A DNA stretch of 64,000 bases, taken from the sequence record MZ868638.1; one strand, given 5' to 3'. The notes beneath the pieces are model-generated. The model saw only the letters and a list, made by a program, of their open reading frames with translations. It was not told the origin of the DNA and ran no database searches. Within the stretch, counting starts at the first letter, position 1, and every line of letters begins with the position of its first letter. Made by a program: the position numbers and the translations under genes. The stretch is from Escherichia phage vB_EcoM-pEK20. Below, piece by piece: positions 31,194-33,309 of the stretch.

Positions 31194-31709
31194 ATGAATA
31201 TTTGTTTAGGCAGTACAATTCCTAAAGGTTACGTAATTGATGTCACTACTTGGGAAAATGACGGCGACAACTATAAAACCAAAACATTATTTGGTGTAGA
31301 AGAGCATGAGCTCCAACAGTTTAAATATCTCTTGAAGAAATTTAAGAGTCGTCATTCTAGCACTAAAGCTGAACGTTACTGTGGTAATACACCATTCAGT
31401 GATTGCTCGCTTTTAATCTATGAATACTTGGTTGAAGGACTGTTCTCAGACCAGCTTTATCCAGAATTCATTAAAAAGGTCTTTGATATTGAAGTCGACC
31501 TTGGTAATAAATCTGAAGAAGACGAATCGCGTGTATTCGACCTGTTCTTTGTGAAAGGCGATGAGATATCCCAAGGCCTTATTGATATTCTTGGCTATGC
31601 TTCTGAATACTACGACTATGATTTCTTGCGTGTAGTTGAACGTGTTGAATTCGCTTATATTGAAGAAGAAATTGTTTTGCCGACTGTTAAAATGATTGAT
31701 TTGCTTTAA
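31194..31709 (+). CDS. hypothetical protein (171 aa), acidic C-terminal half
   Basis: ORF tightly following the previous gene; no recognisable motif. Confidence 0.6.
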   Translation: MNICLGSTIPKGYVIDVTTWENDGDNYKTKTLFGVEEHELQQFKYLLKKFKSRHSSTKAERYCGNTPFSDCSLLIYEYLVEGLFSDQLYPEFIKKVFDIEVDLGNKSEEDESRVFDLFFVKGDEISQGLIDILGYASEYYDYDFLRVVERVEFAYIEEEIVLPTVKMIDLL

Positions 31710-31788
31710 GAATTATGTGTTATTATTAATTCATACCCTCTATTACCAAAGGTGCTCTAAAGTGCCTTTCATAATAGAAAGTTATTTA

Positions 31789-31863
31789 GGCCCTGTAGCT
31801 CAATGGGAGAGCTGTCAGCTCATAACTGATAGGTAGCTGGATCGAAACCAGCCAGGGTCACCA
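31789..31863 (+). tRNA. tRNA with CAU anticodon (Met or lysidine-modified Ile type), CCA encoded
   Basis: Hand-folded cloverleaf: acceptor GGCCCTG/CAGGGTC, D-arm GCTC-AATGGGA-GAGC, anticodon arm GTCAG-CTCATAA-CTGAT, T-arm GCTGG-ATCGAAA-CCAGC. Confidence 0.75.
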
Positions 31864-31866
31864 ATC

Positions 31867-31943
<77 letters not shown>

Positions 31944-31961: not shown

Positions 31962-32306
31962 ATGAAAGGCAATATTTATCTGGTAGTTCATGACTTAACG
32001 TTTTATTTTAACGAACGTGAAACAGTTATTTCCGATAGGTTAATTAATTCGCTGTATCAGCATGCTGATTATGTCTATTTTCAAAATGAATTCGGACATT
32101 GGAAGTTTCTTAAAAACCGTTCCGGGTTAACTAGTTTTGAATACTTTGACCGTAAAGACCTTTTAAACGAAATTCCATTACAACATAGGTTCCAGAAACG
32201 CGAATCACTATACTATTGTCGTCATATACCAAATGCTGAATGTGTTGATGAAGTAATTAATCTATGGCGTAGACGTAGAGAACAAATTGATGATATGTCA
32301 AAATAA
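31962..32306 (+). CDS. hypothetical protein (114 aa) downstream of the tRNA pair
   Basis: ATG at 31962 after GAGG; the track ORF start at 31914 would overlap tRNA-Arg. Confidence 0.6.
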   Translation: MKGNIYLVVHDLTFYFNERETVISDRLINSLYQHADYVYFQNEFGHWKFLKNRSGLTSFEYFDRKDLLNEIPLQHRFQKRESLYYCRHIPNAECVDEVINLWRRRREQIDDMSK

Positions 32307-32608
32307 GAAGCCGGGTCGCTACCGGCAAGTCGTCGGACTGATGTTCCCTGAGTAAGGACTGGTCTTAATAAATCTTTATGATTTGTTAATATCCCCTTAC
32401 ATCACAGCAGAAACGGCGCAAAGAATTATCGATTCGAGGAAATATCTTTGCCGTAAGCCGAGTAGCGTTTTTGACGGAACGTTCGGATATGGTCGAGATA
32501 TGGCCTTTTAAAAATATTGAGTAGCGTCAACTGCTTAATAACCGGGTTCGAATCCCGGCGTTTCGTACAAACACTTGCCTTAGTAGGTGGAAACCCCGAC
32601 AAGGTATA
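32307..32608 (+). ncRNA. ORF-free structured region, possible small stable RNA(s) with a tRNA-like T-arm
   Basis: About 300 nt with no ORF; CCGGG-TTCGAAT-CCCGG T-arm-like element at 32542-32558; repeated GAGTAGCG motif; ends at an intrinsic terminator. Confidence 0.4.
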
Positions 32609-32609
32609 T

Positions 32610-32638
32610 AGCCCCTTCCGAAAGGTTGGGGCTTTTTT
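32610..32638 (+). terminator. rho-independent terminator (AGCCCC...GGGGCU + U6)
   Basis: GC stem with inner CC-GAAA-GG, followed by TTTTTT. Confidence 0.8.
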
Positions 32639-32639
32639 G

Positions 32640-32647
32640 TATAAATA
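32640..32647 (+). promoter_or_regulatory. late promoter TATAAATA upstream of the 208-aa internal-protein-like gene
   Basis: Exact TATAAATA 35 nt upstream of the ATG at 32683. Confidence 0.65.
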
Positions 32648-32682
32648 TAGTAAACAATAAACCTACTTTCTAAGGACCATCA

Positions 32683-33309
32683 ATGTATACTTTTAATGAA
32701 TTTTTAGCCGAAACGGAAGTAATCACCGAAGCCGGTGTACGTATGACAAAAGAGAAATGGCAAGCTGCTTACGATGCTATTTCTGGTACAAAAACTAGTA
32801 CAGAGTTTTTCAAAAACGTTCAAGCCATGTATGGTATCGACACTTCCAGCCAAAAAGAATATTACAGAGCTTCTAAAGCATTCAAAGATATTGTTAGTGG
32901 CGGTGTTTCTGCTAAATCGGGTTCGCCTAAAGTAAAACCTGCTCCTACCGTTCCTAAACCTGCGACCCCTAAAGCAATAGCAAAACCTGAGCCTAAGCCG
33001 GAAGTAAAAGCAACTCCTAAAGCTCCTGCTCTTAAGTTTGATACTTCTAGCCTGGAAAAAAAATATAAACAACTATCTTCGCTTGTTCGTGATATTGAAT
33101 CCGATACATCTTCACTCGTTCGTGAATTCAACAGTCTTCGTAATGGCCAACATATCAACAACCTTGATACCCCAGACCTTTATCGTCTTTATTTGACTAT
33201 CGAAGGTTTGAAGTATACTCAACCACTTCACGATGCGATTAAAGAAAAACTTCGTCAGGCAGGTCGTTTGGCTGCTGACGCTGCTCAGTATGCAAAAACT
33301 CGTAAGTAA
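32683..33309 (+). CDS. internal-protein-like protein with capsid targeting sequence (208 aa)
   Basis: N-terminus MYTFNEFLAETEVITEA resembles the T4 CTS (MKTYQEFIAE) with L-x-E/I-x-E sites; Pro/Lys/Ala-rich linker; late promoter upstream. Confidence 0.65.
   Translation: MYTFNEFLAETEVITEAGVRMTKEKWQAAYDAISGTKTSTEFFKNVQAMYGIDTSSQKEYYRASKAFKDIVSGGVSAKSGSPKVKPAPTVPKPATPKAIAKPEPKPEVKATPKAPALKFDTSSLEKKYKQLSSLVRDIESDTSSLVREFNSLRNGQHINNLDTPDLYRLYLTIEGLKYTQPLHDAIKEKLRQAGRLAADAAQYAKTRK

Follow-up and report, generated by a model that had tools for sequence, protein, structure and literature searches.

The interval from 32,307 to 32,608 of the window (the whole stretch of phage DNA analysed here, 64,000 nucleotides in length) almost certainly contains the orthologs of two stable RNAs of bacteriophage T4, rnaD (species 2 RNA) and rnaC (species 1 RNA). 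The locus itself is already known, as both RNAs are annotated in T4 and were detected there experimentally. Beyond this assignment, we propose, with a probability of about 0.6, that the interval gives rise to two non-coding RNAs and that rnaC is a non-decoding mimic of tRNA. The original prediction had recognised a structured region that could be either the counterpart of the T4 stable RNAs or a group of degraded tRNA genes; alignment to the T4 rnaC/rnaD region, base for base, bears out the first of these. The structured region stands as described, except for its limits, as the functional block is slightly larger (32303-32638). The features of the locus are as follows:

31700..31735, + strand: candidate MotA-type middle promoter (Mot box TTTGCTTTA, 12 nt, TATTAT; a pattern match)
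31789..31863, + strand: tRNA-Met (CAT) (ARAGORN; Rfam tRNA model, 59.4 bits)
31867..31943, + strand: tRNA-Arg (TCT) (ARAGORN; Rfam tRNA model, 71.1 bits)
32303..32422, + strand: rnaD ortholog (species 2 RNA), ~120 nt (T4 alignment; RNAalifold; minimum free energy (MFE) z = -3.5)
32423..32428, + strand: spacer GAAUUA between rnaD and rnaC (equivalent to T4 71052..71047)
32429..32567, + strand: rnaC ortholog (species 1 RNA), 139 nt (T4 homology; covariance model R1; covariation; MFE fold)
32430..32436, + strand: 5' strand of rnaC helix P1, CGAUUCG, pairing with CGUUUCG at 32559-32565 in a 7-bp acceptor-like stem
32437..32506, + strand: long irregular hairpin of rnaC (P2a, P2b, P2c, P3) at the position of the D-arm (RNAalifold, both sequence classes)
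32507..32515, + strand: A-rich single-stranded linker of rnaC, UUUAAAAAU, its AAAAU core invariant in alignment A4
32516..32539, + strand: P4, the anticodon-like arm of rnaC, with a 9-bp stem and the hexaloop CGUCAA at 32525-32530 (covariation)
32542..32558, + strand: T-arm of rnaC, CCGGG, UUCGAAU, CCCGG (exact match)
32559..32569, + strand: 3' strand of P1 (32559-65), then U (32566) and ACA (32567-69) at the place of the tRNA discriminator and CCA
32570..32606, + strand: conserved 3' trailer element ACACUUGCCUUAGUAGGUGGAAACCCCGACAAGG, kept in T4 and phage e11/2
32610..32638, + strand: intrinsic terminator of the tRNA/rnaD/rnaC unit, a GC-rich hairpin followed by T6

When 32300-32640 was used as a BLASTN query, 806 phage records matched, among them T4 with 100% query coverage and 88.8% identity over ~341 aligned nt. 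The annotation of T4 (NC_000866) at the aligned site lists tRNA-Arg (71247..71173), then rnaD (71171..71053) and rnaC (71046..70908), the last two as misc_RNA, and both align base for base with the interval; the ends of rnaD and rnaC in the window were transferred from this annotation. The orthologous T4 block consists, in order, of rnaD, rnaC, the conserved trailer and the terminator, and its copy in the window occupies 32303-32638, with a start (~32303) that overlaps the stop codon of the ORF before it. The T4 spacer AAAUUA (71052..71047) is represented by GAAUUA. The rnaC sequences of T4 and the window are ~99% identical and both 139 nt long, and rnaD shares with T4 its conserved 5' 45 nt and 3' 24 nt. 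With 1 kb surrounding the locus as the query, 820 phage records matched, mostly T4-like phages of E. coli and relatives, and Escherichia phages JS09 and HX01 were 99.8-99.9% identical; judged from its sequence, the window belongs to a Mosigvirus-type T4-like phage.

The segment 32300-32640 folds well below dinucleotide-shuffled sequences (z = -6.2), and so do rnaC (z = -3.6) and rnaD (z = -3.5) when folded separately against shuffled sequence. The interval had been called free of ORFs, and indeed no ORF of more than 58 aa overlaps it, the others present being of 42 and 47 aa. ARAGORN found only tRNA-Met and tRNA-Arg, with no third tRNA and no tmRNA, and Rfam models run over the whole window at gathering thresholds returned the same two tRNAs and nothing in rnaD or rnaC. 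At E <= 10 on 32200-32720, Rfam gave only sub-threshold noise besides the tRNAs. The best relaxed match was tRNA-Sec (16.6 bits, E = 1.7, gathering score 47), and the permuted-tmRNA model reached 10.1 bits (gathering score 47) on the T-arm only. The absence of a covariance-model hit, along with that of a stable transcript, had been named as grounds for giving up the idea of a stable RNA; Rfam is negative, yet the identity holds, and the covariance-model test would mislead, since Rfam (release 15) apparently has no family for rnaC or rnaD. In T4, RNAC was seen by northern blot, RNAC and RNAD were both classed as late RNAs, and the two are abundant stable species (PMC9697503). The literature located (PMC9697503, PMC3014915, PMC12685909) gives the role of RNAC and RNAD as unknown, and nothing on function was found for species 1 RNA or 'p2Sp1'.

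The block lies downstream of two tRNA genes, as compared with eight in the T4 cluster, and a 114-aa ORF (phrog_3355) separates tRNA-Arg from rnaD. Pfam and PHROGs searches on the flanking ORFs returned only families of unknown function. The putative Mot box at 31700 was called by its match to the consensus of T4 middle promoters. The strong terminator predicted at the end of the interval is present as a hairpin with TTTTTT at 32610-32638 (AGCCCCTTCC-GAAA-GGTTGGGGCT, then TTTTTT). A strict, simple terminator scan missed it because the stem holds two U.U mismatches, and the homologous site in phage e11/2 carries a terminator annotation. A late-promoter motif, TATAAATA, is present at 32640 and is assigned to the gene that follows. 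Between rnaC and the terminator, the conserved trailer is possibly a processing site; in Dhakaviruses it lies directly 3' of rnaD, rnaC being absent there. The tRNA-Arg genes beside the block in T4 and in e11/2 are unrelated sequences.

To describe the structure of rnaC, 23 distinct sequences from many T4-like lineages (Tevenvirinae/Marfavirus) were collected in alignment A4. They come from T4-type phages, VR7, CIP9, LC53, Moon, Pet-CM3-4, COW86c, Melville, VPA32, PEi20, NM4.3, Ursula, Kosakonia 305, F48, Marfa, PM2 and IMG/VR contigs. With covariance model R1, the rnaC of the window scores 153.8 bits and is the sole significant match in the window. When 37 rnaC pairs were tested over the 23 sequences, 92.7% of cells were standard-paired, versus 34-46% when the partners were slid by 1-3 columns, and changes on both sides were found in 18 of the 37 pairs. 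The covariation score was 0.331 versus 0.152 in shuffles, and none of 500 shuffles reached 0.331. The same arms were obtained from RNAalifold, run separately on classes A and B, and from the single-sequence MFE fold of the window rnaC. Overall, it is very probable that rnaC forms a tRNA-like four-way junction.

The T-arm-like element noted earlier is found exactly at 32542-32558 (CCGGG-TTCGAAT-CCCGG), and the middle pair of its stem covaries, being U-A in 11 sequences, G-C in 9 and A-U in 1. The possible acceptor strand that had been proposed after it, CGTTTCG at 32559-32565, pairs with CGATTCG at 32430-36 with the support of covariation. This partner lies ~130 nt upstream of the T-arm, at the extreme 5' end of rnaC. 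The cloverleaf could not be completed by hand because rnaC has neither a normal D-arm nor a 7-nt anticodon loop. P1 contains two conserved U.U pairs, replaced by U-A in PM2; its pair 3 alternates between A-U (8 sequences) and G-C (14 sequences), and its pair 1 is A-U in PM2. P1 is followed by U-CCA in three phages, F48, Marfa and PM2, and by U-ACA in the remaining sequences, including the window. An acceptor stem formed instead by the internal segment ACGGAACG and the 3' end was considered and rejected, as G-to-A and U-to-C changes would give A.C in it; with the 5'-terminal strand as the partner, this U-to-C change is a compensatory one, and the internal ACGGAACG is the 3' strand of the P3 hairpin, which itself covaries.

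At the position of the D-arm, the long hairpin ends in the hexaloop UUGACG at 32471-32476, and at its base P2a pairs AGG with CCU, with a compensatory U-A in PM2. This arm measures 70-71 nt in all 23 sequences, and the identity between class A and class B in it is only 38%. So tight a constraint on length points to a defined three-dimensional arrangement. The P4 arm is similarly constant at 23-24 nt in all 23 sequences, and 7 of its 9 pairs are changed on both sides. The repeated motif that had been remarked upon, GAGTAGCG, has just two copies in the 64-kb window, one at 32460-67 and one at 32519-26.

The two hexaloops of rnaC, UUGACG in the long hairpin and CGUCAA in P4, are complementary at six of six positions, and the complementarity ends exactly at the loop boundaries; the calculated chance of a full Watson-Crick match between two given hexaloops is ~1/4096. 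F48, Marfa, L281 and L283, which make up the Marfavirus lineage here, have UUGGCG and CGCCAA instead, so that both loops have changed in a compensatory way and an A-U pair has become G-C. The loop-loop covariation amounts to one independent compensatory event, and PM2 retains only 4-5 of the 6 pairs. The loops may pair within one molecule or, equally, join two molecules in a dimer. An intramolecular kiss of 6 bp between two arms on one junction would require sharp bending. In CIP9, L031 and LC53, the GG beside P2a is changed to CG, and it is precisely in these three that position 55 of the T-loop is changed to G (pair 77:126). This correlated change is consistent with an elbow contact of the D-loop/T-loop type, but it may be a single event and carries little weight. 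The T-loop consensus is lost in CIP9 and LC53, and therefore a reader of the T-loop sequence such as TruB or TrmA is excluded as the conserved partner.

In rnaD, a 5' hairpin at 32310-32326 (GCCGG-GUCGCUA-CCGGC) takes the form ACCGG-GUCGCUA-CCGGU in homologs, so that the closing pair alternates between A-U and G-C. It is followed by a long hairpin closed by GUCGUCG (32329-35) with CGGCGCA (32414-20), the latter CGGCG(C)AC in homologs. From 12 rnaD homologs, RNAalifold obtained 25 pairs, and compensatory changes are seen at 6 of these; among the homologs the distal hairpin varies, but the base and the internal loops do not. The distal hairpin occurs in three unrelated sequence types that do not track the phage genus, and the Dhakaviruses 005 and IME540 carry an extra short rnaD-like paralog with the same closing stem. 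When the T4-like phage BW1 was evolved on the semi-permissive E. coli strain ECOR34, one rnaD SNP arose in three of three lines (PMC12685909). It was the sole change common to these independent lines, and the virulence index (RBG) rose from 0.17 to 0.98 (PMC12685909). This fits a role of rnaD in host-specific interactions; the SNP could equally act at the level of DNA, e.g. as an escape mutation in a target site of restriction or CRISPR.

The two RNAs do not always occur together. rnaD is found without rnaC in Dhakaviruses, and rnaC without rnaD in Moon, CIP9, Melville, F48 and others. A conserved pairing of rnaD with rnaC (loop CGCUAC with GUAGCG) was considered and was rejected on this ground, as each RNA is found without the other. 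In Moon, Melville, VPA32, COW86c, LC53 and PM2, rnaC lies inside a tRNA array between two tRNA genes, usually tRNA-Trp and tRNA-Gly; in Ursula, a tRNA-Trp gene is directly 5' of rnaC and the next tRNA is further downstream. An A-rich leader of 5-6 nt precedes rnaC in all homologs, as it would a tRNA gene. This genomic setting speaks for a tRNA-like nature of rnaC. By BLAST walks and R1, the known range of rnaC comprises only T4-like phages of enterobacteria, Tevenvirinae and Marfavirus. R1 found no rnaC in the nudE-57B regions of Klebsiella phage KP15 and phage RB43 or in Dhakavirus CLB_P2, and BLAST walks that started from the variants of Melville, F48 and PM2 stayed within Tevenvirinae/Marfavirus. 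Two ungapped patterns were useful in scanning IMG/VR for homologs; gapped DNA patterns gave chance matches, with no usable new homologs among the matches listed. The whole block had no BLASTN match in 5,426 complete E. coli genomes (both strands, E <= 10), and therefore it has no host homolog and no long antisense target there. About 800 phage records contain the block, mostly unannotated or overlaid with spurious hypothetical proteins, because the function is unknown and Rfam has no family for it.

A possible scheme of synthesis and processing can be described as follows. rnaD and rnaC would form the tail of the tRNA-Met/tRNA-Arg unit, ending at the terminator at 32610-38, and transcription would come from upstream, possibly from the Mot-box-like site at 31700, and continue across both tRNAs and the 114-aa ORF as far as the terminator. 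Since rnaC presents an acceptor/T-arm minihelix, RNase P may cut at its 5' end and remove the A/U-rich leader GAAUUA. The same cut would free rnaD, whose 3' end would then be trimmed to the closing stem, and the 3' end of rnaC may be produced by the tRNA 3'-end pathway, through trimming and possibly CCA repair. Work of the 1980s on a 'p2Sp1' precursor reportedly agrees with an RNase P cut at the 5' end of rnaC. Taken together, a route by RNase P and the tRNA 3' pathway seems a reasonably probable account.

As for function, rnaC is regarded as non-decoding because it lacks a free 7-nt anticodon loop and a recognisable aminoacylation identity set. The second loop would lock the anticodon-like one, within one molecule or as a dimer. 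We tentatively suggest that rnaC, as a stable RNA with the shape of a tRNA, serves as a decoy or scaffold and ties up a factor of host or phage that reads the acceptor and elbow, a role that is possible rather than probable. rnaD may be an independent module, in which the invariant base and internal loops are likely to offer a platform for protein binding and the distal hairpin is mosaic. A more speculative and, in our estimate, unlikely extension is that rnaC is a self-locked tRNA mimic, a closed ring or head-to-tail dimer that shows only its acceptor/elbow face, and that rnaD is a second arms-race RNA. The anticodon-like CGUCAA (GUC) would then be held by a built-in codon-like UUGACG (GAC), and in Marfaviruses GCC by GGC. 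If this were true, rnaC could be a decoy against host factors that target tRNA (immune nucleases, tRNA-processing enzymes, the ribosome), and rnaD would be a second RNA in the arms race between host and phage, fitting the BW1 SNP on ECOR34.

The reading of the stretch as degraded tRNA genes, functionless relics of a larger T4-type cluster, can draw on the perfect T-arm, on the decrease from eight tRNAs in T4 to two here, and on the weak alignment to tRNA-Sec (16.6 bits, E = 1.7). It appears scarcely credible when set against a rnaC that is ~99% identical to that of T4 while the tRNA-Arg genes nearby differ in sequence, with compensatory changes in 18 pairs and a strict constraint on length that is kept in 23 of 23 sequences and across genera. 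Moreover, rnaD has no tRNA-like feature at all, and in T4 the RNAs are abundant and stable (PMC9697503). Hardly more can be said for small protein-coding genes across the stretch. Many GenBank records, including most of the BLASTN matches, carry a 'hypothetical protein' over the region, F48 and Marfa have a 45-aa CDS across rnaC, and ORFs of 42, 47 and 58 aa do exist; however, none exceeds 58 aa and none is annotated in the curated T4 genome. The substitutions follow compensatory base pairing and not a codon-like pattern, and the class A and B arms share one helix layout at 38% identity.

It is a more serious possibility, though still an unlikely one, that the block acts purely in cis, as processing punctuation and a 3' exonuclease barrier of the tRNA operon, with the released RNAs as by-products. 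The block is at the 3' end of the unit, just 5' of the terminator, the 3' end of rnaD coincides with the end of a stable stem, and T4 mutants without the tRNA region were reportedly viable in studies of the 1970s and 1980s. However, end protection would be needless in Moon, Melville, VPA32, COW86c and LC53, whose rnaC lies within the tRNA array. The invariant loops, the AAAAU linker, the U.U pairs and the fixed arm length exceed what would constrain a spacer or barrier, and in T4 both RNAs build up in stable form (PMC9697503). We regard as distinctly unlikely the view that the two are trans-acting small RNAs that regulate host or phage mRNAs by base pairing through exposed loops. They have the size and stability usual for regulatory small RNAs, some single-stranded segments of rnaD are conserved, and a regulatory role was suggested by the authors of the BW1 study (PMC12685909). 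Against this, the two most conserved loops of rnaC are complementary to each other and covary, and the mature RNAs lack the terminator-type, U-tailed 3' end usual for Hfq-dependent small RNAs. The lack of any match in the E. coli genomes bears on long targets and not on short seeds, and according to a T4 review no trans-acting small RNA has been characterised in that phage (PMC3014915). If rnaC were a tRNA or tmRNA-like molecule that can be charged and enter the ribosome, this would account for the acceptor-like stem, the discriminator-like U, the (A/C)CA and the T-arm. The 5' sequence of rnaC, AUUCGAGGA, has a loose resemblance to the D-loop region of tmRNA, and it was counted in favour of this view. 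Even so, such a molecule is very improbable, as ARAGORN is negative, the Rfam tmRNA and tRNA models stay below threshold, and rnaC has neither a 7-nt anticodon loop nor a tag ORF. The lineages differ at pair 3:70, which may be A-U, G-C or G.U, and C-G at pair 1:72 goes together with U73; by the identity rules of E. coli, the acceptor stem of rnaC holds no conserved identity set.

A non-decoding tRNA mimic beside a second non-coding RNA is the reading that we prefer. The comparative model of rnaC, with its tRNA-like junction, length-locked 70-nt arm, complementary covarying hexaloops and, in some lineages, encoded CCA, makes the decades-old question of the function of T4 species 1 and 2 RNAs directly testable.

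The locus resembles that of T4 in its order on the same strand (tRNA-Arg, rnaD, 6-nt spacer, rnaC, trailer, terminator), in the lengths of rnaD (~120 nt) and rnaC (139 nt), and in a block identity of 89%. The two loci differ in some respects: rnaD ends in GCGCAAA in the window and in GCGCACC in T4, and the extra hairpin with a GCAA loop that precedes the terminator in T4 is absent. Since the 114-aa ORF lies between tRNA-Arg and rnaD in the window, the 5' end of rnaD cannot here result from trimming adjacent to tRNA-Arg, as it might in T4.

In common with tRNA (RF00005), rnaC has a four-way junction, a 7-bp stem between its two ends with N-(A/C)CA after it, a T-stem of 5 bp capped by the loop UUCGAAU, and GG beside a short D-stem-like helix (G18 and G19 in tRNA), and it occurs within tRNA arrays. 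It differs from tRNA in being 139 nt long, with a 70-nt hairpin in place of the D-arm, and in its anticodon-like arm of 9 bp, whose 6-nt loop is complementary to another loop. It also lacks the U8/A9 linker and has a 9-nt A-rich linker at the place of position 26, and it goes undetected by tRNA finders. The tRNA-like domain of tmRNA and the bacterial Y RNA YrlA likewise graft an acceptor/T-arm module on other helices, so that a non-decoding RNA can be processed or recognised by tRNA enzymes. Unlike tmRNA, rnaC has no tag reading frame, and it scores below the threshold of the Rfam tmRNA model. In YrlA the tRNA-like module is internal; the acceptor stem of rnaC instead carries the RNA's own ends, and no Ro/Rsr-binding stem of the YrlA type was recognised in it. 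Finally, the two 6-nt loops, with complete Watson-Crick complementarity confined to the loops, are similar to the kissing loops of ColE1 RNA I/RNA II and of TAR-TAR*, in the latter of which the 6-nt loops are fully paired, except that in rnaC both loops sit in a single 139-nt RNA with a tRNA-like core.

The junction between tRNA-Arg and rnaD, the ortholog of T4 species 2 RNA, looks like a gene-insertion hotspot, since the conserved rnaD sequence begins with AAGAA(A/G)CCGGG in every case. In T4, rnaD follows tRNA-Arg directly, whereas in pEK20 a 114-aa ORF is inserted between them; in T2, Shfl2, and locus L012, the site carries another ORF, unlike that of the window. The stop codon of the 114-aa ORF overlaps the conserved rnaD 5' end, and its match to DUF2654 is weak and sub-threshold. 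In two Dhakaviruses, a miniature rnaD-like element lies at the same junction. The elements of the unit and its surroundings, with the Dhakavirus element last, are as follows.

31700-31735, +, candidate MotA-dependent middle promoter (Mot-box-like TTTGCTTTA, 12 nt, TATTAT)
31962-32306, +, 114-aa ORF (phrog_3355) between tRNA-Arg and rnaD
32570-32606, +, third conserved element, ACACUUGCCUUAGYAGGUGGAACCCCGACAAGG, between rnaC and the terminator
32640-33309, +, late-promoter motif TATAAATA at 32640, then a 208-aa ORF (phrog_2280)
L288:235-305 (vB_EcoM_005) and L289:225-305 (IME540), miniature rnaD-like element of about 70 nt between tRNA-Arg and rnaD

The Dhakavirus element consists of a 5' hairpin, a closing stem (GCCGUCG/CGGCGC), and the 3' end GCGCA(A/C)CAAAC, and it appears to be an unannotated rnaD paralog. 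The middle of rnaD itself, its distal hairpin (32350-32399 and homologs), falls into three unrelated sequence types, AGUAAGG..., GAGUAUAGUU..., and AAUAAGACCCGAC..., which are shuffled across Tequatrovirus, Mosigvirus, and Dhakavirus while the flanks on both sides are invariant. This pattern could have arisen by recombination, or the tip could be under diversifying selection.

Rfam 15 appears to have no model for rnaC, the species 1 ortholog, and none for rnaD. In most public T4-like phage genomes among the GenBank matches listed (H31-H90), both RNAs are unannotated or overlaid by short hypothetical proteins; CDS calls run across rnaC in F48 (vBKpnF48_274) and Marfa (CPT_Marfa_145), and only a few of the records listed, e.g. 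T4, T4T, RB5, and Kha5h, carry an rnaC label.

The Mot-box-like site lies upstream of tRNA-Met and is a candidate promoter of the whole unit. Downstream, the 208-aa ORF begins with MYTFNEFLAE, which we take to resemble MKTYQEFIAE, the sequence that targets T4 internal proteins to the capsid, and the gene in the same position in Dhakavirus 005 begins with MKTYNEFLNE.

Only tRNA-Met and tRNA-Arg are present at 31789-31943, whereas T4 has eight tRNAs and the homing endonuclease segB. In the alignment of T4 with phage e11/2 the tRNA-Arg sequence differs, but the downstream rnaD/rnaC block is conserved. The trailer element is near-identical in T4, and in Dhakaviruses it stands directly 3' of rnaD.
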